This document shows positions 2,427 to 16,072 of a DNA stretch of 24,734 nucleotides, in pieces (position 1 is the first letter of the stretch; each line of letters opens with the position of its first letter). The notes beneath the pieces were generated by a model. That model saw nothing but the letters and a program-made list of their open reading frames with translations, did not search any database and had not been told where the DNA came from. This stretch comes from Candidatus Dojkabacteria bacterium (GTDB lineage Bacteria; Patescibacteriota; Dojkabacteria; J137): NCBI GenBank assembly GCA_003694175.1, contig RFKV01000056.1, forward strand, positions 1-24,734, written 5' to 3'. Position numbers and translations under genes: made by a program.

Positions 2427-3638
2427 ATGTATAAGATCCCATCAAACATTGAAAAAAAAGGTTTTTGGAACGTGGATGGCCTGGAGAACAAAAACGTTTT
2501 CCTTAGAAGCTGTTTAAACGTTTCTGTAGACAAGTACGGTAATTTATTAGATGAGTCAAGGCTTAAAGAGTCTATTCAATCAATAGTTGAATTAGCCTTT
2601 AAGTCAAAAAGCCTGATTGTCTGCGGACATCTTGGTAGACCAAAATCTTGTGAACAAAATTTAAGTTTTAAAAAAAATGTACTTCCTTGGATAACGGAGA
2701 ATCTAAACTCTAAGGGTTTCAACGTAATCTTTGCTGAAAGTCTATCTGATATACCTCCGAAAGATCAAAGAAATAAATCAAACATATATTTACTTGAAAA
2801 CATCAGGTTTTTTAAGGGTGAGGAATCAAACGATAGAAAGGAGATGATTAAGTTTGCAGAAAGCTTAGCGGAAACCTCGGATATTTTTGTAAACGACGCT
2901 TTTGCAGACTATAGAGTATCCGCCAGCACATACGAAATTGCTAAATTACTGCCAAGCTATATTGGTAGATCATTTATGAAAGAAATCGAGGCGCTATCAA
3001 AGTTTTACGATCCACCAAGGCCGTTTTTGTGCGTCTTGGGAGGGGCAAAGTTGAGTGAGAAGTTAGAATTTTTAACAACACTGGCAGAAATTTCTGACAA
3101 GGTTTTGATTGGTGGGGCCATGGCTTACACCTTGTTGAAAGCTAAAGGAATTAATATTGGTAAATCATTATACGAAGAGGATAAAGTATCACTGGCGAGA
3201 GAATTGATTAAAAAGCATAGTCAAAAGATGCTGTTGCCAGTTGATCACGTGATCTCGCTGGAGTTTAGTCATTCTTCTCAAGTGACTGTAACAAAGAGCG
3301 CAGAGGTACCGAACGAATACTTTGCGATTGATATTGGGCCAAAAACATTAGAAAAATATCTTGAAGAAATCTCGAATGCAAAAAGTATCCTTTGGAATGG
3401 ACCAATGGGTGTATACGAATGGCCTCAATCAAGTACCGGTACTAGCCAAATAGGTGAATCAATAGTGAAAAATAAAGAAGCATTTAAGCTCGCTGGAGGT
3501 GGAGATACCATCGCAGCGATTAACATGTTTTCTCTAAGCGGTTTTGACCACATCTCAATGGGTGGTGGGGCCATGCTTGTTTTTTTCTCATGCGACAAAT
3601 TTGATACTATTGATGTAATTGTGAATCAATATAGTTAA
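2427..3638 (+). CDS. pgk: Phosphoglycerate kinase
   Basis: GHLGRP, LLENIRF, NDAF, LGGAKLSEK, IGGAM, DIGP, LWNGPMGVYE, GGGDT and HISMGGGA motifs. Basic-patch Arg/His residues are largely retained. Confidence 0.97.
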   Translation: MYKIPSNIEKKGFWNVDGLENKNVFLRSCLNVSVDKYGNLLDESRLKESIQSIVELAFKSKSLIVCGHLGRPKSCEQNLSFKKNVLPWITENLNSKGFNVIFAESLSDIPPKDQRNKSNIYLLENIRFFKGEESNDRKEMIKFAESLAETSDIFVNDAFADYRVSASTYEIAKLLPSYIGRSFMKEIEALSKFYDPPRPFLCVLGGAKLSEKLEFLTTLAEISDKVLIGGAMAYTLLKAKGINIGKSLYEEDKVSLARELIKKHSQKMLLPVDHVISLEFSHSSQVTVTKSAEVPNEYFAIDIGPKTLEKYLEEISNAKSILWNGPMGVYEWPQSSTGTSQIGESIVKNKEAFKLAGGGDTIAAINMFSLSGFDHISMGGGAMLVFFSCDKFDTIDVIVNQYS

Positions 3639-3693: not shown

Positions 3694-4776
3694 ATGAAAA
3701 AAATTGGATTGGTTGTTTCAGGTGGAGACGCACAAGGTCTGAACGCTGTAATATATGCCGCAGTAACAGTTGGATTAAAAAATAGCGCTCAAATTTATGG
3801 TTTCATTAAGGGCTTCGAAGGTATTCTAGATCAGAAATACTTAATACTTGACTTGAACAATATTAAAGGAATATCAAACCTTGGAGGTTGCATTCTTGGC
3901 TCAACCAACCATGGAAGATTTGCAGCAAAAGCAGGAGAAAACGTAACTATGCAAATTCCTAGTGAAGTAATAAAGCAAACTATCGATAATTTATCTAATT
4001 TAGGAATAGAGTCATTAATTGTTGTTGGAGGAGACGGAACTTTGAGTGCTGCATCACAACTTGCCGAACACGGTGTACGTGTGGTCGGTGTTCCTAAATC
4101 AATAGACAATGACCTTTATGGAACCGATCAAACTTTTGGATTCAACACAGCTGTTCAAATAGCTACTGACATGATTGACAGAATCCATACTACGGCACAG
4201 GCGCACGATAGAATATTTTTTATTGAAACAATGGGAAGGTACTCTGGATGGATTGCAATAGACGCAGGTATAGCTGGTGGAGCTGATGCTATACTAGTGC
4301 CAGAGATAAAATTTGATTATGATAAACTTGTGAGGTTTTTAATTGACAGAAGGAATAAAAACATGAACTATACGATAATAGTAGTTGGGGAGGGGGCTTT
4401 ATCAATCGATGAAAGTAAAAACATAAAAAGAACTGAGAAGGCCGGATCAATGGCTAAACTTGCAGGGACAAGCGAGAGAATAATGAAAAGAGTCGAACAA
4501 ATAATACCAAACACGTTTGATATGAGAAACGTAGTTTTAGGACATATTCAAAGGGGTGGTACCCCAACCGCTTTTGATAGAATCCTGGCAAAAAGTTATG
4601 GAGTTGAAGCTATGAAAGCAGCATTAGATGGTGAAGCTAATGTGATTATTTCGCTTCAAGGCCAAACTTTTACAAGGATAGATATTGCAAAAGCTGTTTC
4701 TCACACTAAACTTGTCCCACTAGACAGTATAAAAATAAATGTAGCAAGACAACTAGGAATATTTCTTGGTGATTAA
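3694..4776 (+). CDS. pfkA: 6-phosphofructokinase, PfkA family (group III / mixed-substrate type)
   Basis: SGGDAQGLN, GGCILGSTN, GGDGT, PKSIDND, TFGFNTA, ETMGR, LGHIQRGG. Confidence 0.96.
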   Translation: MKKIGLVVSGGDAQGLNAVIYAAVTVGLKNSAQIYGFIKGFEGILDQKYLILDLNNIKGISNLGGCILGSTNHGRFAAKAGENVTMQIPSEVIKQTIDNLSNLGIESLIVVGGDGTLSAASQLAEHGVRVVGVPKSIDNDLYGTDQTFGFNTAVQIATDMIDRIHTTAQAHDRIFFIETMGRYSGWIAIDAGIAGGADAILVPEIKFDYDKLVRFLIDRRNKNMNYTIIVVGEGALSIDESKNIKRTEKAGSMAKLAGTSERIMKRVEQIIPNTFDMRNVVLGHIQRGGTPTAFDRILAKSYGVEAMKAALDGEANVIISLQGQTFTRIDIAKAVSHTKLVPLDSIKINVARQLGIFLGD

Positions 4777-4815: not shown

Positions 4816-5484
4816 ATGTTAATCCTAAATCTAAAAAACTATGAAGAATCAACTACTACACATCTTTGGAAGTTGCTTGACTCATTAAACACACTTGTTG
4901 AAGAAAGGCCTGACTTCAAAGAGAAACTTTTAATCGCACCTTCCATGGTTTTCCTTCTACTTGCAAAAGAAAGGTACCCAAACCTAAATTTTATATCTCA
5001 ACATGTTGACGATAAAGAACAAGGAAGCACAACTGGTTGGACGCCTGCTGAAGTCTTAGTTTCAAATGGTATTAATTTTTCTTTGATAAACCATTCAGAG
5101 CATAGAGTACTACCCAAAAATTATGTGGATGAATTACAATCAAAAGGTATTAAAGTAATTGCATGCTGCGAAAATCTAGATGAGGCAGAAATTTTTTTAA
5201 AGTCTAAAGCTTGGGCGATAGCCTATGAGCCAAAAGATTTAATTGGTTCAGGTGTTTCAGTAACTAATAGATCAGAGGATGTCAAAAAATTTACAAAGGC
5301 TTTAAAAGGAAAAACGAAAGTTATAGTTGGAGCCGGAATCACGAAAGCAAGTGATATTAAAGCAAGTATCGAACTTGGAGCTGACGGTGTGCTAGTCGCT
5401 TCGGCTTTTGTTAAATCACAAGATCCTTACTCAAAAGGTTATGAATTGTTGAATGTATTTGGAGAAATAGATCCCGAAAAATGA
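4816..5484 (+). CDS. tpiA: Triosephosphate isomerase, short archaeal type
   Basis: 222 aa. NLKNY (K7), INHSEHR (H93), AYEPKDLIGSG (E138), VGAGI, GADGVLVASAFVK. Confidence 0.95.
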   Translation: MLILNLKNYEESTTTHLWKLLDSLNTLVEERPDFKEKLLIAPSMVFLLLAKERYPNLNFISQHVDDKEQGSTTGWTPAEVLVSNGINFSLINHSEHRVLPKNYVDELQSKGIKVIACCENLDEAEIFLKSKAWAIAYEPKDLIGSGVSVTNRSEDVKKFTKALKGKTKVIVGAGITKASDIKASIELGADGVLVASAFVKSQDPYSKGYELLNVFGEIDPEK

Positions 5485-5577: not shown

Positions 5578-7107
5578 ATGAAGCCTAAGAAAGTAGTACT
5601 AATCATAATGGACGGTTGGGGAATTGCTCCACACTCAGAGTACAATGCTATTACAAACGCACGTACACCAAATTTTGATAGACTAGTGAGAGAATACCCT
5701 AACGTTAAACTCAAATCTGATGGATCATCTGTAGGTCTACCTGATGGTCAATTTGGTACGAGTGAAGTGAATCATTTGATAATAGGAGCTGGTAGAGTCA
5801 TACTGCAGGATTTACCGAAGATAAATAATTCTATATTAGATGGAACCCTACAAACAAACGAAGCGTTGAATAAATCTATAGCTCATGCAATCAAAAATCA
5901 GTCCAGACTACATTTAGTCGGTATACTTTCAGATGGCGGTGTACATTCTCACATTTCTCACATGTTTGAGATTATAAGACTTGCAAAGAGTAAAGACTCA
6001 AATCTAAAAATATTTTTACACCTTTTCACAGATGGTAGGGATGTTGCACCTTTTTCAGCTGAGAAATATTTTAAACAACTGGATAGCTTTCTGGTTCAAG
6101 AAAACTTTAAAAGTGTTGAGATATCAACAATCCAGGGGAGAGTTTTTCTAGACAGGGATAGAGACTGGGCAAAAACCGAACAAGCATTTAGGTTGTTATA
6201 CGATGGAGATATGATGCAAGTAAACAACTGGAAGTCAGCATTAAATCTTGCTTATAACCTTGGTGTTAGCTCAGATGAAAAAATAGGACAATACATAGTT
6301 AAAAAAGAAGGTCAAATAAAGAAAAATGATGCAATAATTTTTACCCACTTTAGGACTGATAGAATATATCAATTACTTAAAAGAATTCTTAACGAGAACA
6401 TACCTAATCTGCAAATCACAACTCTAACAAAAGCAAGCGAAGAGTTTGAGTCACATGTAGATGTAGCATTTCCTAGAAATAAAGTAAAGAATACTCTAGC
6501 AGAAGTCGTTTCAAAAGCTGGAAAAACACAACTACACATAACAGAAACAGAAAAATATCCTCATCTAACTTTCTTTTTAAATGGAGAAAGAGAAGAACCC
6601 TTTCCACTTGAGGAATGGAAATTAATAGAATCAAATAGATTCGTTAAACCTAACTACGACTTAGAACCTAGTATGCAAAATTTTAATATTACCAAAGAAG
6701 TATTATCAAGCATCTCGAAGTGTTCTCATGATCTAGTTATAGTTAATTTGTGCAGTCCTGATATGGTAGGACATACGGGAAATTTCCACGCTGCGGTAGT
6801 TTCAGCTGAATCTGTAGACTTTTGTGTTGGCAGAATTTATGAAGAAATAAAAAAGAACTTTGAAGAATATGCTTTGATAGTGACAGCAGATCATGGAAAC
6901 AGTGACATTATGTGGGATACTGAAAACAATCAACCACACACACAGCATACAAACTCTCCAGTTCCTTTTATATTGGTCTCAAACTTACCAGGCATTAAAC
7001 TCAAACAAAGGGAAAGCCTACAGGATGTTGCTCCCACTATTCTTGAGTTGATGAAAATACCAAAACCAGAAGAAATGGAGGGCGAAAGCTTGATTTCAGT
7101 GAAATGA
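5578..7107 (+). CDS. gpmI: 2,3-bisphosphoglycerate-independent phosphoglycerate mutase
   Basis: IMDGWG, GQFGTSEVNH (phosphoserine site), SDGGVHSH, DGRD, FRTDR, ETEKYPH, DMVGHTG, TADHGN. Confidence 0.98.
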   Translation: MKPKKVVLIIMDGWGIAPHSEYNAITNARTPNFDRLVREYPNVKLKSDGSSVGLPDGQFGTSEVNHLIIGAGRVILQDLPKINNSILDGTLQTNEALNKSIAHAIKNQSRLHLVGILSDGGVHSHISHMFEIIRLAKSKDSNLKIFLHLFTDGRDVAPFSAEKYFKQLDSFLVQENFKSVEISTIQGRVFLDRDRDWAKTEQAFRLLYDGDMMQVNNWKSALNLAYNLGVSSDEKIGQYIVKKEGQIKKNDAIIFTHFRTDRIYQLLKRILNENIPNLQITTLTKASEEFESHVDVAFPRNKVKNTLAEVVSKAGKTQLHITETEKYPHLTFFLNGEREEPFPLEEWKLIESNRFVKPNYDLEPSMQNFNITKEVLSSISKCSHDLVIVNLCSPDMVGHTGNFHAAVVSAESVDFCVGRIYEEIKKNFEEYALIVTADHGNSDIMWDTENNQPHTQHTNSPVPFILVSNLPGIKLKQRESLQDVAPTILELMKIPKPEEMEGESLISVK

Positions 7108-7200: not shown

Positions 7201-7704
7201 ATGAAAAACTGGAAAAACGTTTTTTTAATGTTATTCATTTTAACGTCATTTCTGATTATTTCAGGAAGGACAGGTCCAGAAAACAGCAATGAAAGAAAGC
7301 CTGTAGTGGTTTCTCAACCCCGGTTGAACACACTAGACTCGACAAATCTACCAACGTTTTCTGAAAAATTTACTGAACTTAAGACTGAAATACTATTACC
7401 ATCTAACCTGGAAAAAACGAGGATTTACAAGGGAGACAAAAATTTTAGAGTTAATTACAGAGGATGGCTTGCAAGTAATGGAAAAATTTTCGACCAGAAT
7501 ATAGCGTCCGGCAATAATGAAAACTTTATTGAATTAAATCCTAAGAATTTAATACCTGGATTTTTTCAGGGGGTGATTGGCATGAAAGTTGGTGAAATCA
7601 GAAGAATTTACATTCCCTCTAACTTAGGATACGGGGAATCAGAGACAGAGACGATACCCAAAAATTCAGATTTGATTTTTGACGTTGAATTAATTTCTTT
7701 TTAA
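7201..7704 (+). CDS. FKBP-type peptidyl-prolyl cis-trans isomerase with N-terminal signal/anchor
   Basis: VNYRGWL..GKIFD, LIPGF..GVIGMKVGEIRRIYIPSNLGYG, IPKNSDLIFDVEL. Basic then hydrophobic N-terminus. Confidence 0.93.
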   Translation: MKNWKNVFLMLFILTSFLIISGRTGPENSNERKPVVVSQPRLNTLDSTNLPTFSEKFTELKTEILLPSNLEKTRIYKGDKNFRVNYRGWLASNGKIFDQNIASGNNENFIELNPKNLIPGFFQGVIGMKVGEIRRIYIPSNLGYGESETETIPKNSDLIFDVELISF

Positions 7705-7710
7705 AGGAAA

Positions 7711-8304
7711 ATGACAGAAAATCCTTTTTTTGAAAAACCCATACCAAAAAAAGAAAATAAAGCAGCTGTTATAGTTACACTGCTTGCGTCTTGCTGTATA
7801 ATGCTTCTTTTTTGTTGGTTTACAATTCTTGGACAAAACCAAGTTGAAGGCCCTTCGATGCAGCCTAACTTTTACTCAGGACAGTTGTTGTTTATAAGCA
7901 AAATTCCACAAATTTTTAACCTAGAGTATCAAAGGGGGGAAGTAATAATTTATCAAAAGCCAAATCATCCAGAATTTGTCAAAAGGATAATAGGATTACC
8001 TGGTGAAAAAGTTTCTATCAAAAATTGCTTTATCTACATCAATGGGAAAAAACTAATTGAAAGCTATTTACCCTCCGGACTATGTACTTTTGGCGGAAGC
8101 TTTGTACAGGACGGAGGAGATCCACTTGAAATCCCCTTAGGTCATTATTTTACCGTAGGTGACAATAGATCCAAAAGCAACGATAGCAGATTTGTAGAAA
8201 TTGGATTCATAAAGAAAGAGTGGATAAAAGGTTCAGTCTTCTTTAGAGTCTGGCCCTTAGAAAATTTTGGCTTTATCAATCCTGGGAAGTACGAACTAAT
8301 CTAA
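7711..8304 (+). CDS. lepB: Signal peptidase I (peptidase S26), single N-terminal TM
   Basis: Catalytic Ser box VEGPSMQPN, catalytic Lys box FVKRIIGLPGE, GDNR..SNDSR. AGGA SD-like sequence before the start. Confidence 0.95.
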   Translation: MTENPFFEKPIPKKENKAAVIVTLLASCCIMLLFCWFTILGQNQVEGPSMQPNFYSGQLLFISKIPQIFNLEYQRGEVIIYQKPNHPEFVKRIIGLPGEKVSIKNCFIYINGKKLIESYLPSGLCTFGGSFVQDGGDPLEIPLGHYFTVGDNRSKSNDSRFVEIGFIKKEWIKGSVFFRVWPLENFGFINPGKYELI

Positions 8305-8478
8305 ATGAAAAAATAAAAAAGAAAAATCAAATTAATTAAGTATTTAAAACATTGGATTTTAATTTGAACTTGACATGAAATTTACTCGAGTTCTTAACAA
8401 TGAATGCAAAACTAAAGAAATTAGGGTAAAATTGCTTAACATAAATAACAAGAAGTCTCATTCTAAGCTCTTGCAACA

Positions 8479-8886
8479 ATGAAAAAAGTAATGGCGATTG
8501 CTTTGAGTCTGACGACAGTTTCATTGGTGATTTTCTTCCTGATTAATTTTACACAAAATCAATACCCCATAGAAGGGAATTCACAACAGATGGACAGTAC
8601 GCAGGTAGGAGACTCTACCCAAAAAAAAAGTGAAAAAGCAGAGGATTACAACTTCAGAGAGAGCCAAAAGATCAACGAAGATAACGACAATTTAAATCAA
8701 TCTGATTTTGGCTCGGACAATAATCGATGTATAATCATAATAGACCAAAACAAATACGATGTTTCAAATCTTAAATACACACACACTGGAGGAAACATTT
8801 TCAAATGTGGACAAGATATGACCAAAGAATTTGAACAAAAACATCGTCTAAACTTAAAAATGATTGAAAAATATAAAGTTAAGTGA
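8479..8886 (+). CDS. Membrane-anchored cytochrome b5-like heme/steroid-binding domain protein
   Basis: N-terminal TM, polar linker, then CIIIIDQNKYDVS..THTGG..CGQDMT..F..KH. This resembles the b5 pattern (HPGG...GxDxT...H), with H102 and H122 as candidate heme ligands. Confidence 0.8.
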   Translation: MKKVMAIALSLTTVSLVIFFLINFTQNQYPIEGNSQQMDSTQVGDSTQKKSEKAEDYNFRESQKINEDNDNLNQSDFGSDNNRCIIIIDQNKYDVSNLKYTHTGGNIFKCGQDMTKEFEQKHRLNLKMIEKYKVK

Positions 8887-8887
8887 T

Positions 8888-9994
8888 ATGGAACCCGTTC
8901 CTGTACCTAAAAATGTTATTGACGCTGAATTTAAGCTTTTTGGCAGTTTCACTGTAAGCCAATTTCTGAAAATATTGGCGGGGGGACTTATTTCATTGGT
9001 GATTTTTTTTGTAGAAATAAACATATTGATTAAAGCTCCGATTATGCTATTAAGCATCGGTGTTGGCTTTCTTATGGCTTGGGTTCCTAGATTTAGCTTT
9101 TTGTTTTGGGGCTTTGTCAAAGCAATATTTATATCTCCTAGATACGTGTGGACAAGAGAAGGATACGTACCAGAGATTCTTATGGAACCACAAAAAACAA
9201 AAAAGTATGAAGATCTAAAGGTTTCTGTTTCTAAAAGTACTAAAAAAGTCGACATAAACAGTCTACCTCTTGCGGAAATTCTCTCTCAAGGATCAAAGGT
9301 AAAAACCTCTGCGAAAGATCCAAGTACTGATTTACTTAGCAACGATCCTCTCGAAATTAGTTATCTGTCTCCAGGTTCTTCAGAAATTATCAATAAATAC
9401 TTCGAACAATACCAAAAAAATGAAGAAGCTAAAGAGAGTTTAAATAATAAAAATCTGAATACAAACACACAATCTTTAAGCGACAGAACATCAGGCGAAG
9501 CATCACTTATTAAAAAAAGGAAATTGCCAACAAATGCCAAAGAACTGGCAGCTGAAATAAAAAGGCTTAAGTTTGAACTTTTTAAACTTAAAAAAGATGC
9601 CAACTACACAGCTAACGAAAAAAAGATTATCGATCAAATAAATGAGCTATACAGAGAAATCAAACTTTTAATAAGTAAACAAGATACCAACAATCTACCA
9701 AATACTTCAATACAAAACCAAACTAAGACTAATAACACAGAAGGTAAAGAAGTATTTGGTATTGTTGTAAATAAAACTAATATTCCAGTAGGTGAATCTA
9801 AGGTGATTTTTATAAGTCAAAATGGTGAAAAAATCGAAACAATTACTGGGACTGATGGGAAATTTTCAACTCATAAAAAACTACCATTTGGAGAATATTC
9901 AGTCAGTATTGAAAAACCTGGTATGAAATTTCACAGCTATAAAATTACGATTGGAACCGAGGTACTACCCGCTTTTAAGTTTAGAGAAAGATGA
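8888..9994 (+). CDS. PrgI-family (VirB3-like) membrane protein with coiled coil and C-terminal carboxypeptidase-regulatory-like beta domain
   Basis: MEPVPVPKNVIDAEFKLFGSFTVSQF followed by two TM helices is the PrgI pattern. The C-terminal GIVVNKTNIPV..SKV....TGTDGKF....LPFGEYSVSIEKPG is CarboxypepD_reg-like. I placed the start at ATG 8888, 1 nt after the upstream TGA, rather than at the track start 8864. Confidence 0.8.
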   Translation: MEPVPVPKNVIDAEFKLFGSFTVSQFLKILAGGLISLVIFFVEINILIKAPIMLLSIGVGFLMAWVPRFSFLFWGFVKAIFISPRYVWTREGYVPEILMEPQKTKKYEDLKVSVSKSTKKVDINSLPLAEILSQGSKVKTSAKDPSTDLLSNDPLEISYLSPGSSEIINKYFEQYQKNEEAKESLNNKNLNTNTQSLSDRTSGEASLIKKRKLPTNAKELAAEIKRLKFELFKLKKDANYTANEKKIIDQINELYREIKLLISKQDTNNLPNTSIQNQTKTNNTEGKEVFGIVVNKTNIPVGESKVIFISQNGEKIETITGTDGKFSTHKKLPFGEYSVSIEKPGMKFHSYKITIGTEVLPAFKFRER

Positions 9995-10005
9995 TCTTTA
10001 AAATC

Positions 10006-10014
10006 TGATATAAT
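10006..10014 (+). promoter_or_regulatory. Extended -10 promoter (TGATATAAT) for tRNA-Leu/secG
   Basis: Perfect TGn-TATAAT ending 15 nt before the tRNA 5' end. Confidence 0.6.
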
Positions 10015-10029
10015 TTTGAGGAAATAAGT

Positions 10030-10112
10030 GCCGAAGTGGTGGAATGGTAGACACTGCGGACTTAAAATCCGTTGCTCGATGGAGCGTGAGGGTTCGAGTC
10101 CCTCCTTCGGTA
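10030..10112 (+). tRNA. tRNA-Leu(TAA)
   Basis: Acceptor stem GCCGAAG/CTTCGGT, D loop with GG, anticodon stem GCGGA/TCCGT, loop CTTAAAA (anticodon 10063-10065), long variable arm GCTC-GATG-GAGC, T arm GAGGG-TTCGAGT-CCCTC, discriminator A. CCA is not encoded. Confidence 0.97.
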
Positions 10113-10136
10113 TGATTTATTTTTGTTTTGTTCATT

Positions 10137-10364
10137 ATGAGAAATATCGTTAAGTTATTAATTGTAGTGGTAGGTTTTGCTTTAGTCACATCTATATTGC
10201 TACAAAACAAAAGCGGAGGTTTAGGAGCGGTGTTTGGCGGATCATCCGGAGGGGAAACCTATAGATCAAAAAGAGGTTTAGAAAGATTTTTACAAAATTC
10301 CTCTATAATTCTAGCAGTGATTTTTGCACTGCTTTCCTTAGCTTTCTTTGTGGTTGAAGATTAA
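10137..10364 (+). CDS. secG: Preprotein translocase subunit SecG
   Basis: Two TM helices flanking [16 protein letters not shown]...[13 protein letters not shown] at 10137; the track uses TTG 10128. Confidence 0.95.
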
Positions 10365-10373
10365 TAATTTGGC

Positions 10374-12320
10374 GTGTCCAAGTTTTTACTATTACTTGAG
10401 AAACTATTTTATTTAGCTAGAGATTTCCTTTGGAGCTATCCTGACCTGTTCTTAGGTAGAGAGTCGCTAGTTTTTCGTTTATCAAAAATCTACAAAAAAC
10501 TTATACCCTTATCCCATATTTTAGTTTCATTTTCCCTGACCATCCTAATCATTAGCTTTATAACGTCAACTCCCTTAAGATTATATATCACGTTAAACAG
10601 AGAAAAGACACTAGTTGAAGGTGTAATAACTGGTGCTAATGAATTTGGTGAGACAAATAAAATTACTAGCATAAATCCCATCATTTCTTCAAGCCTTCAA
10701 GCAGAAAGAGACATCGTAGAATTGATTTATGAGCCACTGCTTAAGGTTGTATTTAAGGCACAACCTGGGGATAAGTTTGATCAGGAGTTTAGACTATACT
10801 TGGCAAAAGAAATAAATACGTTTGCAACAGGTGCGGAATATCAAATAGTACTTAGAGACGATGTATATTGGCATGATGGAACTAAATTTTCAGTTGATGA
10901 TGTCATAGCAACTTTTGACCTGGTTGCATCACTATCAACCCCAAATGCAAACTCACAAGTATTATCGCAGATGTTATGGGAACCTGTTGGAAACAGTATA
11001 AGGATATGCACAAAAGTAACTCAACAATCAAAGTCTTGCAGCGAACCAGGAGAAAAACCCTTTTTCTCAAATTTTTTGGAACTGATTTCCGTCAAAATAT
11101 TACCGAAACATAAAATTGGCGATATAAACAGAGCAAATTTTGATAGCAGTATACCTGAGATATTTAGGTCACCTATCGGAACTGGCCCATACAAGTTTTC
11201 AGGCGTGAGCGAAAATAGCGTGAATTTGACGTATAACGATCTTTATTATCAAAAAGATTTCAAACCCGGCATCAAAAGTATCCAGTTCAAATTTTTTAAG
11301 TCGATTGAAAAAGCCTTAAATGCACTCAAAGCTTCCGAAATACATTCATTCGCAACTCCATCGTCAGAATTTAAGAGAGAGATGTCATCATTTCCGAATA
11401 TTTCCCTAAACGTAAGTCCCGTATTATATAACCAGTATTGGGCTATCTATATAAATCTCAGGAAAGATCCTCTAGGCAACCCTATTGGCTCTAAAGCGCT
11501 GCAGGACCCTAAAGTTCGCCAAGCATTACATTATGCGTTGAATCGTGAAGAAATGATTAGCATATCAATGGATTCTCTGGGTAAACCTGCTAGCGGTCCT
11601 ATACCTTCAATCTCTTCATTTTTCAACCCTGAGGTGGATTTTAGTGAGTACAACATCAAAAAAGCTGAAGAACTTTTAGATGAAGCAGGTTGGTATAGAT
11701 TTAGTACAAATAAGTATAGGGTGAATGAAGCAGGAGAGGAACTATATTTCAAACTCTATTTTGTAGATTCTATAGACAGAAGAAATCTTGCAAACTACAT
11801 AAAAATTGCATATGAAAGAGTGGGAATAAAAGTGGATATATCAAGCAATGAGAGGTCTTTTGGATTAACTCTACAAGAGCTCAACAGTCAATACTTAAAT
11901 AAGGGCCTTTTTGATGCAGTAATCTATGGAGTTTCTACTTTTATTGATCCTGATAGATTTGAACTTTTTCATTCTTCTCAATCAAAGTATCCCGGTCTAA
12001 ACATTTCTGGATACATAAGTTCAGAAGTTTCAAAAGTAGTTGGTCAAAAAAATGGAAAAAAAGATGTAGTAGACGTTCCGAAGGTAGACAAAATTTTGGA
12101 GGAGGCCAGATCATTAGATCCCGTTGAACTGTATAATATCAGAAAGGATAGGTATTACGAATTTCAAAAAATTTTACATAAAGATATGCCTTTAGTGTTT
12201 CTGTTTCATCCACAGTTTATTTACTATACCAACAAAAAAGTTGTAAACGTAAACTTATCAAGAGTAAACTCAATAGAAGAGCGCTTTTTAAATATTTCTG
12301 ATTTCATATTAGTGGAGTGA
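10374..12320 (+). CDS. ABC transporter substrate-binding protein, family 5 (OppA/DppA-like), TM-anchored
   Basis: ELIYEPL, YQIVLRDDVYWHDGTKFSVDDVIATF signature, PIGTGPYKF, DPKVRQALHYALNRE, AEELLDEAGW. Has an N-terminal TM and no lipobox. Confidence 0.92.
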   Translation: MSKFLLLLEKLFYLARDFLWSYPDLFLGRESLVFRLSKIYKKLIPLSHILVSFSLTILIISFITSTPLRLYITLNREKTLVEGVITGANEFGETNKITSINPIISSSLQAERDIVELIYEPLLKVVFKAQPGDKFDQEFRLYLAKEINTFATGAEYQIVLRDDVYWHDGTKFSVDDVIATFDLVASLSTPNANSQVLSQMLWEPVGNSIRICTKVTQQSKSCSEPGEKPFFSNFLELISVKILPKHKIGDINRANFDSSIPEIFRSPIGTGPYKFSGVSENSVNLTYNDLYYQKDFKPGIKSIQFKFFKSIEKALNALKASEIHSFATPSSEFKREMSSFPNISLNVSPVLYNQYWAIYINLRKDPLGNPIGSKALQDPKVRQALHYALNREEMISISMDSLGKPASGPIPSISSFFNPEVDFSEYNIKKAEELLDEAGWYRFSTNKYRVNEAGEELYFKLYFVDSIDRRNLANYIKIAYERVGIKVDISSNERSFGLTLQELNSQYLNKGLFDAVIYGVSTFIDPDRFELFHSSQSKYPGLNISGYISSEVSKVVGQKNGKKDVVDVPKVDKILEEARSLDPVELYNIRKDRYYEFQKILHKDMPLVFLFHPQFIYYTNKKVVNVNLSRVNSIEERFLNISDFILVE

Positions 12321-13081
12321 TATCAGTAATTAAAGATAGACAAGACTATAACAATCTAATACAAGCATGCGAGATATCAAAAAAGATACTAAGGGTAGTA
12401 GTTTCACAAGTTAAAGAAGGAAACACTCCTTTTGAAATAAACGAACTGACAAAAAGTCTTTGTAAACAATATAATTGCAAGCCAGCGTTCTTTGGCGTTA
12501 AAGGTCCTAAGGGCCCTTTCCCAGGATACCTCTGTATTTCAACCAACGATGAAGTTTTACACGGGGTTCCTCTCTCGAAGAGGGAGTTTAAATCTGGCGA
12601 TGTTGTAAAAGTTGACTTTGGATTATATGCCTATGGTATGTATACAGACCATTGTGTTAACGTAATTGTTGGTGATGTTTCCGAGCAAGTTAAGAAACTT
12701 GTTGAGATCTCAAAGTTGTGTATTGAAAAAGGTATAGAAAATGCCATTTCAGGAGGATGGACAGGTGATATTTCAAATGCAATGGAAACTGTCTGTAAAT
12801 TATCAAAAGTAGACTTCGTTAAAACTTTTTGTGGTCACGGCATAGGTAAAAAATTACACATGGATCCAGAAGTACTAACATATGGTGAAAGAGGAACTGG
12901 AACCAAACTTATTGAAGGCATGGTTTTAACGATTGAAAATCAGATCACATCAGGATCTGCAGACCTCTACTTAGACAAAGACGGGTGGACCCTAAAAACT
13001 AAAGACGGAAGCTTAGCATTTATGACAGAACACATGATAATTATCCGAAAAAAACAAGCTGAAGTACTAACTAGAATTTGA
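12317..13081 (+). CDS. map: Methionine aminopeptidase type I
   Basis: CISTNDEVLHGVP, metal ligands in VKVDFG (D), YTDH (D), GHGIG (H), TIEN (E), TEH (E). The GTG start overlaps the upstream TGA by 4 nt. Confidence 0.96.
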   Translation: MISVIKDRQDYNNLIQACEISKKILRVVVSQVKEGNTPFEINELTKSLCKQYNCKPAFFGVKGPKGPFPGYLCISTNDEVLHGVPLSKREFKSGDVVKVDFGLYAYGMYTDHCVNVIVGDVSEQVKKLVEISKLCIEKGIENAISGGWTGDISNAMETVCKLSKVDFVKTFCGHGIGKKLHMDPEVLTYGERGTGTKLIEGMVLTIENQITSGSADLYLDKDGWTLKTKDGSLAFMTEHMIIIRKKQAEVLTRI

Positions 13082-13135
13082 CAATGCTCTAACTGCAAAA
13101 TCATAATAGAATTTCACAAAAAAGAAAAAAACTTT

Positions 13136-14809
13136 TCAAAACCTTGCAGCCGTATAGTGACTGTAAAAGATGTCTTCGGCAATTAACTCTCCTGCTTCAT
13201 AAACTTTTCTTAAAAATGATCCTTTAAATCTCCCATATCCAAAATCATCCCACTTTTTCCAATCTAACAACTCTACTTTCCTTTCAGGCTGTTGAGAACT
13301 TGTTAAAACACTTACTCTTTTATACTCATAACCATTTTCTTGCCATCTATCAACTTTTAGCATAATTGGAAACTTTGTATTATTTATAAATTTCAAATCA
13401 ATCTTAGGATGTGTTTGATACGCGGCATCTACTAGATTTAGTGGATAAGGCCATTCATAGGATGGCACATTTATTGAATGCCACCATCTTTCTGTTATTA
13501 GTAAGCCACTTTCTAAAGCTGCCCTAAATATTGTGGTTGAAGAGTTGCAAATACCAAAATCTATTGGCTTGTGGCTTTTTGTTACCCAACCACCATTGAC
13601 AAATGTGGGTCTAAGGGCATTGAAAAATGAGAATTCTTCTCCAGGCTCAACCACAAAACCGTTTATTTCGTCAAGACCTATACGAGCACTGACCATCGAT
13701 GGATTGATTACTACTACACCATTGTTTTGGTTAAAAACTGAAATCCTCGTTTCTCCAAAACCTAAAACCTTGGTGAAGTCATACACCTTTAGATTTGGAT
13801 TGTTGTACCATTCCGGGTACTTTTCTTCCAGTGAAATAAATTGATAAGCGTTTTTTGAGTTTAGATAAGCCAGTATTACATCAACTGTAAGATCACTGGA
13901 TAGATACACACCTTTGGAAAAATTTCTAAATACATAAACTTTTCCGTTATCATATCTTACGTCTCCTGGATCAAAAGGTTTCACTATCCTCTGTACTGAG
14001 TCTCGTATTAACGAATCTAATAGCTCTTTATTGTACATTAGCCACACATCATGCTGTGGGTTGTAGTCAAGCGAGGCCAGAATTTGGTCTTTTGAATCTA
14101 GGAAATATAATTGCTGTTGTAAATTTGATATACCATTTAAATAAATCTTACAATAAAAGTACAAATTGCTAATAAATTCATTTGTTCCCAAATAAATGGT
14201 TATATTTCCTTTAGATGCTATAAATTTTTTAATTTGAGAATTTATCGAGTAGATCTCATCTGGACTTACGTAATAACTATCTTTTCCACAGTTTTTGATA
14301 TTACCATTAGCATCAATATATGGTGCATTTGATAATTCAGTTGTTAAGTTTAACTTAGGCAGTAGATCATTTATATCAACAAATAACAAAGAATTGATTA
14401 ATTCGTTTAAGCGAGCTTTATCAAATAAATTCAAAAATTCAAATAAAGTTTTAATAAAATTACCTTTACCAAAATTTTTTAGTTTTTCTACGTCAACACT
14501 AAACTTAATGTCGGCAATATTGAGAAATTTATCTTCCCCATATACTCTGAACCTAAACTCATTAGAACCTGCTAAATTGGTAGTCAGAACTAAATCAACT
14601 AAATTAGCCCCATCCAAAGTATCTATATCCATTAAGGATAAGTCACGACCATAGATTTTAATCCCGGGAGGCAGCTTATTTTTTAACGCAATGTTTGAAA
14701 TCCCAAATATTGTTGCAGAAACCAGTAGAAAAGCAAATGCAAAAACAATAAGTGTAGATAAAACAAAATTAAGTAAGCTATCTTTTCTTTTTTTTCTATT
14801 TCTAAACAT
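13136..14809 (-). CDS. VanW-family membrane-anchored cell-envelope protein
   Basis: N-terminal TM. C-terminal VanW core: INGFVVEPGEEFSF, GICNSSTTIFRAALESGL.ITER..HS, DLKFINNT..PI. Confidence 0.88.
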   Translation of the reverse strand: MFRNRKKRKDSLLNFVLSTLIVFAFAFLLVSATIFGISNIALKNKLPPGIKIYGRDLSLMDIDTLDGANLVDLVLTTNLAGSNEFRFRVYGEDKFLNIADIKFSVDVEKLKNFGKGNFIKTLFEFLNLFDKARLNELINSLLFVDINDLLPKLNLTTELSNAPYIDANGNIKNCGKDSYYVSPDEIYSINSQIKKFIASKGNITIYLGTNEFISNLYFYCKIYLNGISNLQQQLYFLDSKDQILASLDYNPQHDVWLMYNKELLDSLIRDSVQRIVKPFDPGDVRYDNGKVYVFRNFSKGVYLSSDLTVDVILAYLNSKNAYQFISLEEKYPEWYNNPNLKVYDFTKVLGFGETRISVFNQNNGVVVINPSMVSARIGLDEINGFVVEPGEEFSFFNALRPTFVNGGWVTKSHKPIDFGICNSSTTIFRAALESGLLITERWWHSINVPSYEWPYPLNLVDAAYQTHPKIDLKFINNTKFPIMLKVDRWQENGYEYKRVSVLTSSQQPERKVELLDWKKWDDFGYGRFKGSFLRKVYEAGELIAEDIFYSHYTAARF

Positions 14810-14929: not shown

Positions 14930-14938
14930 TGGTATAAT
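14930..14938 (+). promoter_or_regulatory. Extended -10 promoter (TGGTATAAT), likely giving a leaderless transcript of the PGK paralog
   Basis: Perfect TGn-TATAAT ending 6 nt before ATG 14945. Confidence 0.6.
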
Positions 14939-14944
14939 TCGGGC

Positions 14945-16072
14945 ATGAAGTTTTTAGGAGAAGATAAGATCAAAGACTGTACCGTCTTGGTGAGGACGAA
15001 TTTTGATATGGATCTTGATAATGGTACGGTCGTAGATAATACCCCAATCTTAGCAATCCTGCCTACTTTAGAATTTCTGATAAAAGGAAATAACAGGATA
15101 GTAATTTTATCGAGCCTGGGAGATTTTACTGGTGAGGCTAGAGATGAAAGTAGTCTCTTGCCAGTGAGATTCGAAATAGCTAGACAAATTGGAAAAACTG
15201 TCAAATTTGTTTCAGCAAGTAATCCAGTAAACTCAATAAAGTATATGGTTCCGACAGATGTTTTGCTGATCGAAAATCTTTTTTTTCACAATGAAGAGCT
15301 ACCGACGACGTCAGAAGAGCAAAGATTAAGTTTTTTTAAGCCTTTTTTGGATTTTTGTAATGTCTATATAGATGAAAGTTTTGGTGTAGATGAAAATTTG
15401 TCATCTGTGTCTTGGCTGAAAAAAAAGTTTAAAAACGTGTACTATGGGATTCAATACCAAAAAGAGCTAAAAGTATCTAAATCAATCAGTTCTTACCCAA
15501 GTCCCAAAATTGCAATATTAGGTGGTGAGTTGACAAGTTCTAAATTAAACCTAATGATTAGAAACACAGGTAAGTTCGATAAGTTTTTGCTTGGTGGTTT
15601 CCTTGCAAAAGCAATTATTGACTTCATTGAAAAAGGAAGTACTTTTGGGAGTTTCACTAATGAAATAGCACGTGTAGTAGAAAAAATACAAAACAAGGAA
15701 ATTGATGTTTTGCTACCAATTGATCACATCTGCACAGATACAAGTAACAATTCAGTTGAAGTTCAAACTCAATCTTGTCCAAATGAATATGAACCTAAAG
15801 ATATTGGGCCTAACACCCTAATTTTGTTTAGGGAAGTTATTGAAATGGCTGAAACAATTTTATGGTGCGGTCCTATGGGAGCATATAAAGATGAAAGATT
15901 TAACATTGGTACGGAAGCCATAGGCGAATATATTGCACTTTCTGCTTCAAGAAAGGCTAACAAAATAGCTTGTGGGAAAATTACCTTAGAATCTATATCA
16001 AAATTAAAGATAAAACATAAAAGATTCACACACCTTTCTCTAGCTGAAGACAAGTTCCTAGACCTAATTTGA
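14945..16072 (+). CDS. Phosphoglycerate kinase-family protein, degenerate paralog (probable pseudokinase or neofunctionalised)
   Basis: PGK scaffold is recognisable throughout (VLVRTNFD, LLIENL, AILGG, LLGG, LLPIDH, DIGPNT, LWCGPMG). Substrate-binding and catalytic motifs are substituted. The ORF is intact at 375 aa. Confidence 0.88.
   Translation: MKFLGEDKIKDCTVLVRTNFDMDLDNGTVVDNTPILAILPTLEFLIKGNNRIVILSSLGDFTGEARDESSLLPVRFEIARQIGKTVKFVSASNPVNSIKYMVPTDVLLIENLFFHNEELPTTSEEQRLSFFKPFLDFCNVYIDESFGVDENLSSVSWLKKKFKNVYYGIQYQKELKVSKSISSYPSPKIAILGGELTSSKLNLMIRNTGKFDKFLLGGFLAKAIIDFIEKGSTFGSFTNEIARVVEKIQNKEIDVLLPIDHICTDTSNNSVEVQTQSCPNEYEPKDIGPNTLILFREVIEMAETILWCGPMGAYKDERFNIGTEAIGEYIALSASRKANKIACGKITLESISKLKIKHKRFTHLSLAEDKFLDLI

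Follow-up and report, generated by a model that had tools for sequence, protein, structure and literature searches.

A conserved phosphoglycerate kinase homolog of Dojkabacteria that has lost its catalytic residues and is kept beside a canonical enzyme

Phosphoglycerate kinase (PGK; EC 2.7.2.3; PF00162) is a two-domain enzyme, exemplified by the structures from Thermotoga maritima (1VPE) and Campylobacter jejuni (3Q3V) and by human PGK1. A broad survey of the metabolism of the candidate phyla radiation handles PGK as a near-universal core enzyme (PMC7304191). In kinetoplastids, PGK-like proteins (PGKL, e.g., Tb927.11.2380 of T. brucei) are predicted to be inactive from the loss of key residues and are kept beside active PGKs; they are mostly large, multidomain proteins with cyclic-nucleotide-binding, helix-turn-helix or transmembrane parts, and PGKL is flagellar (PMC7729029). 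In Mycoplasma mobile, the PGK homolog MMOB4530 (PDB 9IO5) is built into the gliding twin motor, retains the residues for catalysis and is regarded as the working PGK, and the binding and catalytic residues are not conserved in a second homolog, MMOB4490 (PMC11864180). Here we describe P0001, a PGK homolog encoded on contig RFKV01000056.1 of a Candidatus Dojkabacteria bacterium (positions 1 to 24,734, hereafter the window), which also carries a canonical PGK gene, pgk1 (protein P0002). We consider it likely that P0001, hereafter the dead PGK, is a selected, non-catalytic pseudoenzyme derived from PGK, and that it descends from the PGK originally resident in this bacterial family of the candidate phyla radiation.

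The dead PGK has the same two-domain fold as canonical PGK and retains its hinge and core motifs (ENL.F, LP.DH, DIGP and G.xG), but it has lost the basic patch for 3-phosphoglycerate (3-PG), the Lys of GGAK and the two loops GGGD(T/S) and STGGGA, and its C-terminus is 15-20 residues shorter. While the kinetoplastid PGKLs are eukaryotic and of independent origin, the dead PGK is a stand-alone bacterial protein without fusion partners, and no Pfam domain besides PGK is found in its 375 residues. M. mobile provides a bacterial precedent both for the PGK fold as part of a complex (MMOB4530) and for a dead homolog (MMOB4490). However, MMOB4490 is lineage-restricted, whereas the dead family described here spans many genera and occurs without motor genes or fusions. 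The original prediction, a reading of the window made from its sequence, knew of no described family of bacterial PGK pseudokinases. This holds as far as the literature was searched, in which the single dead bacterial homolog MMOB4490 and the kinetoplastid proteins are on record.

A second full-length PGK-fold open reading frame (ORF) had been proposed for the window, and the ORF, its Pfam match and its predicted fold all bear this out. The PF00162 match covers residues 8-373 with 207 bits (cut-off 27), and solved PGKs in the PDB, among them chain O of 9IO5, are matched at E values of about 1e-39. The AlphaFold2 model, built from a 79-sequence alignment, has a pLDDT of 97.1 and a pTM of 0.92. 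In Foldseek comparisons with PGK crystal structures, the model gave TM scores of 0.8-0.88, and open forms matched slightly better than closed ones. The dead PGK is 25% identical to pgk1, and these two are the only PGK genes in the source genome (745 kb in 117 contigs, 82% complete).

To locate the active-site changes, we compiled a residue table keyed to the canonical PGK motifs in human numbering, in which 12 key residues were scored. In the dead PGK, 11 of the 12 catalytic and substrate residues are replaced, and it is among the most eroded members of its family. The basic patch that receives 3-PG and 1,3-bisphosphoglycerate (1,3-BPG) in canonical PGK (human R38, H62, R65, R122 and R170) corresponds to P34, S57, D60, F113 and E150. 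Every substitution listed in the original prediction is present, namely RTNFD (N19/D21), TPI (P34), SSLGD (S57 and D60), ENLFF (F113), GVDE (E150), GGEL (L196), GAYK (K315), ACGKIT (342-347) and SLAED (365-369), and DIGP, GPMG and LPIDH are kept as it claimed. Some of these changes must be read differently, however. The replacement of DFN by NFD is present but does not belong to the degeneration, since intact and presumably active clade-A PGKs (see below) also have N/D-x-D at this site. Likewise, the replacements of Arg by P34 and of Glu by K315 are present but restricted to the close lineage of this gene, and most family members have K34 and E315. The HR loop is one residue shorter, as in pgk1, and this shortening is common to both PGK clades of the Dojkabacteria type.

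The losses extend through the whole family. R65, K215 and the G394-396 loop are lost in all 35 degenerate members, and R122, R170 and D374 are lost in most of them. The catalytic Lys of GGAK (K215) and both Mg/phosphate loops, GGGD(T/S) and STGGGA, are missing throughout the degenerate clade. All clade-B PGKs, all intact clade-A PGKs and most outgroup proteins keep R38 (or Lys), H62, R65, R122 and R170, and the same proteins keep GGAK...K, NGPxGxxE, GGGD(T/S) and STGGGA. Since the degenerate proteins end 8-11 residues after the STGGGA position, compared with 22-27 residues in intact PGKs, they are without the C-terminal stretch that folds back to the N-domain and takes part in hinge closure. 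Compared with a functional PGK (EC 2.7.2.3), the dead PGK has the fold, but not the basic patch, the catalytic loops or the C-terminal segment. On these grounds, it is not expected to catalyse the PGK reaction.

Searching 5.8 billion proteins yielded about 17 relatives of the dead PGK at 34-50% identity, one of which is labelled Candidatus Dojkabacteria at NCBI, and an exhaustive HMMER search of cluster representatives gave further relatives. In addition, 60 related genomes were searched and all PGK ORFs were extracted. In the resulting tree of 97 PGK sequences, there are two sister clades, A and B, each with a support of 100 and joined at 96 (SH-aLRT). Clade B comprises 20 rows including pgk1, and clade A comprises 52 rows including the dead PGK. 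The 35 degenerate proteins group in a single clade (SH-aLRT 88; recovered in the best tree), which branches from within the intact clade-A enzymes of this family. Pfam PGK scores are 410-447 bits for sole clade-A copies, 340-375 for clade B and 191-338 for the degenerate copies. The alignment shows the clade-A motifs NSIK(F/Y)M, GEYIALS and LKIKxKRF in both intact and dead copies, while the active sites differ between the two sets. The intact clade-A PGKs (e.g., P0015-P0019) are the direct ancestor type. They have these motifs, the short HR loop, N/D-x-D, the gene order and a TGnTATAAT promoter in common with the dead copies, but they keep all catalytic residues and the higher score, and they occur only in genomes without a clade-B PGK.

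A lineage-internal duplication had been suggested from the features common to the dead PGK and pgk1. The sister relationship of clades A and B and the short HR loop of both agree with this suggestion, but the dead PGK is no recent copy of pgk1. It is instead the positional ortholog of the sole intact PGK in single-copy relatives. Four PGK homologs that fall outside the clade under study and come from other metagenomic lineages (P0146, P0098, P0175 and P0089) lack 4-9 of the 12 key residues. Since these proteins are also degenerate, dead PGKs may have arisen several times independently.

A degenerate clade-A copy is found in 18 genomes, the source genome G000 and 17 relatives (G001, G002, G005, G006, G007, G009, G011, G012, G014, G016, G018, G019, G020, G022, G023, G024 and G026), and all 18 also carry a canonical clade-B PGK. 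By contrast, an intact clade-A PGK is found in 13 genomes, and in 12 of them it is the sole PGK at E values up to 0.001 (82-96% complete; seven belong to the same family, five to a sister family). In the thirteenth, G015, a 1.7-kb contig (L038, G015:C195) carries a second PGK, which scores 548 bits against Pfam and groups with outgroup bacteria. This copy is probably bin contamination, which amounts to 5% in this bin. The degenerate-A and clade-B subtrees are broadly congruent; both copies have therefore been passed on together and have co-diverged since the ancestor of about ten genera.

Gene order points in the same direction. Intact copies, e.g., in G013 and G004, lie in the order SerRS, pgkA, c5, RNase HI, c7 and HD-domain protein, where c5 and c7 encode proteins of 205 and 345 residues. 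The same order surrounds the degenerate copies of G001, G005, G007, G012, G014, G020, G024, G026 and G009. Since most degenerate copies sit in the same SerRS-pgk-c5-RNase H context as the intact ones, they are the resident gene, now displaced. Clade-B genes lie just downstream of GAPDH at 16 of 20 loci. Since the dead copy is the positional ortholog of the only intact PGK in single-copy relatives, position and phylogeny identify it as the original resident gene and pgk1 as its replacement. One clade-B PGK (L042, G046:C2, 2944-4707) is a 587-residue open frame, about 180 residues above the usual length, and may be a fusion.

We considered the ancestral neighbours as a lead to function and rejected this lead, because intact copies have these neighbours too and the dead gene was relocated several times. 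The c5 protein has no Pfam or NCBIfam match, and its Atlas neighbours are uninformative.

In a third family of the class, clade B is the only PGK. This family could be the donor of clade B; alternatively, clade B could be an old duplicate. A GAPDH tree, built to test the transfer of a gap-pgkB cassette, showed one GAPDH per genome but was poorly resolved, with the groups mixed. The GAPDH loci (L064-L093) are of two distinct types, one found in the sister family, G013 and G007, and the other in the rest. Since these types cross family boundaries, exchange of GAPDH genes is suggested. Neither PGK nor GAPDH had a match in 26 genomes from 12 other families (G032-G060 except G037, G046 and G055; most more than 90% complete), and central glycolysis therefore seems to be missing from most of the class.

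These observations suggest the following course of events. In one sub-lineage, a second canonical PGK of clade B, usually beside GAPDH, would have become available, either by transfer from a related family or as an old duplicate. The resident copy would then have lost the phosphate-binding arginines, the catalytic lysine, the Gly-rich Mg/phosphate loops and the C-terminal return segment. Nevertheless, the resident gene has been kept under strong purifying selection as an intact two-domain protein of the PGK fold, with its inherited promoter of the leaderless type. Two marks of a pseudoenzyme are found in the dead PGK, namely residue loss in the presence of an active paralog and purifying selection across species.

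The best estimate of selection comes from the one unsaturated pair, the G022 copy and P0054, in which 11 of 82 nucleotide differences are non-synonymous (dN 0.013, dS 0.356, dN/dS (omega) 0.038). In the comparison of G011 with G023, the dead copy has an omega of 0.073, and the clade-B copy of these genomes one of 0.065. Other pairs give omega values of 0.05-0.19 for both the dead copy and clade B, with saturated dS. For the dead copy, dN/dS is 0.04-0.1, well below 1, and the active PGK gives equal values when the same genomes are paired.

Within the degenerate family, constraint has moved to the N-domain. The former catalytic columns (R65, R122, R170, K215, N336, D374 and G394-396) are invariant in intact PGKs, but they lie at the 62nd-98th percentile of column entropy in the degenerate clade and are thus among its most variable. 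Among the degenerate proteins, the N-domain has a mean column conservation (pairwise score) of 2.22 and the C-domain one of 1.74, an order that is reversed in intact PGKs. The most relaxed segments of the dead PGK are residues 181-285, 301-315 and 361-375, while the best-kept features are the N-domain core and the clade-A-specific motifs already found in the intact enzymes. In genus g2, the dead PGK is a 326-residue open frame in which the first half of the C-domain is gone (L032, G001:C1, 2935-3915; L033, G016:C37), and the truncated G001 copy retains the N-domain. The two g2 copies are 52% identical over 151 residues, and the active PGKs of the same two genomes are 53% identical.

Genomes of about 1 Mb shed useless genes quickly. 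Since the dead PGK has nevertheless been kept in such genomes across about ten genera, under selection like that on the active enzyme, it must have an important non-catalytic job. We infer that it acts by binding rather than by catalysis. It probably preserves a non-catalytic second role of the ancestral clade-A PGK, so that the pair may represent a case of subfunctionalisation. The N-domain and the motifs NSIK(F/Y)M, GEYIALS and LKIKxKRF would be the main carriers of this preserved role. As a tentative extension, the dead PGK could be a dedicated binding protein that keeps a moonlighting role from before the handover. It could serve as a regulator or scaffold and dock through its conserved N-domain onto GAPDH, the active PGK or a different partner, or it could sense a metabolite by means of the retained glycerate-side residues.

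Several observations weigh against the interpretation of the dead PGK as a selected pseudoenzyme with an inherited binding role. The monophyly of the degenerate clade is only moderately supported, at 88. Most pairwise dS values are saturated, and reliable omega values come from only one or two pairs. There is no conserved operon partner that points to a function, and the gene changed its location on at least three occasions (g1, g7 and g12 contexts). Since some glycerate-side and nucleotide-side residues stay fairly conserved in the degenerate family (D/N19-21, K34, H57, K200, T347 and E315), residual ligand binding is possible. The clade-A-specific motifs could be purely structural, e.g., with NS as a helix N-cap after the deletion of three residues from a loop. 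In addition, the sequencing runs listed for the source DNA were all DNA runs of a hot-spring metagenome, with none of RNA.

The conserved residues could also indicate a new function. In such a case, the remodelled and partly acidic former 3-PG pocket would bind a new ligand, cationic or non-phosphorylated, and the protein would serve as a sensor or catalyse another reaction. An acidic residue occupies the R65 position in 21 of the 35 degenerate members and the R170 position in 17, and the residue preceding the R170 position is usually Asp. The moderate conservation of N/D19, D21, K34 and H57 together with K200, T347 and E315 and the strong purifying selection would also agree with a new binding site. 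However, the acidic replacements are far from fixed, and no new invariant polar residue was seen in the cleft of the degenerate family. Since the replaced positions are among the most variable of the family, the site appears to have been abandoned rather than re-specified for a cationic ligand, and the charge-inverted pocket envisaged by the original prediction was not borne out. The acidic residues perhaps neutralise the remaining basic ones. Furthermore, constraint is weakest in the nucleotide-binding half, part of which is missing in genus g2, and we know of no PGK-fold enzyme with a different activity. We therefore regard neofunctionalisation as unlikely. Nucleic-acid binding, as might be hinted by a shift in charge or isoelectric point (pI), was considered separately and rejected, because the overall charge is unchanged (the median pI is 6.4 among the degenerate copies, compared with 6.3 among intact clade-A PGKs).

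A second alternative is slow decay, in which a redundant resident pgk has been drifting to loss since the second PGK arrived. The Pfam scores of the degenerate copies do form a gradient from 338 down to 191 bits, genus g2 has the internally deleted 326-residue version, and the window copy is itself one of the most eroded. However, the open frames are intact in all 17 related carrier genomes, which are about 1 Mb in size and belong to about ten genera. The omega of 0.04-0.1 is that of the active paralog, and the promoter is conserved together with its exact spacing. The gene was also kept after relocation, and its position is common to the window and locus L059 even though the two proteins are only 45% identical. 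Decay is thus very improbable, and the view of the original prediction that this is a maintained PGK pseudoenzyme and no decaying pseudogene is supported by orthologs in at least 17 related genomes and in further metagenomes, by the low omega and by the conserved promoter arrangement. Finally, although the full-length PGK fold and the name 'phosphoglycerate kinase' that annotation pipelines give to the orthologs would fit a divergent but still active isozyme, we give this possibility hardly any credence, because substitutions affect 11 of the 12 residues that bind 3-PG or the Mg-nucleotide or serve phosphoryl transfer, the replacements vary between family members, and a canonical PGK lies in a glycolytic gene run of the same window.

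The promoter region is conserved as well. An extended -10 element, TGGTATAAT, lies exactly 6 nt before the ATG, as direct reading of the sequence confirmed. The same layout, TGnTATAAT followed by 5-9 nt and ATG, precedes most of the degenerate clade-A pgk genes and many of the intact ones, including those of P0004 and P0054, but is rare before clade-B genes (sites at 14930-14947 in the window, 5970-6003 in L059, 2040-2064 in L062 and in loci L004-L031). Genome-wide, -10-like hexamers show a small peak at a spacer of 6, and Shine-Dalgarno-like sites precede only about 11% of long ORFs. The recurrence of TGnTATAAT about 6 nt before the ATG in many genera implies leaderless transcripts, and from this conserved promoter-like element the dead PGK looks expressed. 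The gene can thus be called separately promoted, as originally proposed, but its promoter is an inheritance from the active ancestor.

Table 1 Coordinates of the dead PGK gene, its parts and neighbouring genes in the window.
Feature	Position	Strand	Remarks
Extended -10 element TGGTATAAT	14930..14938	+	Spacer 14939-14944, 6 nt to ATG; leaderless-type arrangement
Catalytically dead PGK homolog gene (degenerate clade-A PGK, P0001)	14945..16072	+	ORF, 375 aa
N-terminal domain, residues 1-170 (former 3-PG/1,3-BPG-binding)	14945..15454	+	Basic patch gone: P34, S57, D60, F113, E150
C-terminal domain, residues 185-375 (former nucleotide-binding)	15497..16069	+	GGEL for GGAK, ACGKIT for GGGDT, SLAED for STGGGA; C-terminal return segment shortened
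pgk1, canonical clade-B pgk (P0002), presumed working PGK	2427..3638	+	403 aa, Pfam PGK 351 bits, all key residues present
PFK	3694-4776		Neighbour of pgk1
TIM	4816-5484		Neighbour of pgk1
iPGM	5578-7107		Neighbour of pgk1
VanW-like gene	13136-14809	Opposite to dead PGK gene	

The two PGK genes of the window lie in different surroundings (Table 1). The presumed working gene, pgk1, is the first of a pgk-pfk-tpi-iPGM run, and the dead PGK gene stands alone, with the VanW-like gene on one side and a pilin-like three-gene operon on the other, each encoded on the opposite strand. In the nearest relative on a long contig (P0004, locus L059), the dead PGK lies at the same site, beside the same pilin-like operon and mnmA. 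Since the dead PGKs of the two loci are 45% identical, compared with 45-69% for the neighbouring proteins, the dead PGK evolves at the fast end of the local range but not outside it. The block of FKBP, S26 peptidase, cytochrome b5-like, CarboxypepD_reg, SBP_bac_5 and M24 genes is inverted between the two loci (7201-14809 in the window and 164-5814 in L059), and L059 lacks the VanW-like gene.

The dead PGK family outlines a clean evolutionary trajectory. The dead copy lies at the ancestral locus and is confined to genomes that have a second PGK, which documents how an incoming or paralogous enzyme takes over catalysis while the resident survives as a pseudoenzyme. In genome annotation, a simple residue check would separate the dead family from working PGKs. 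If the dead PGK indeed keeps a moonlighting role of its ancestor, it would be a clean natural case of the subfunctionalisation of a glycolytic enzyme in a minimal genome.

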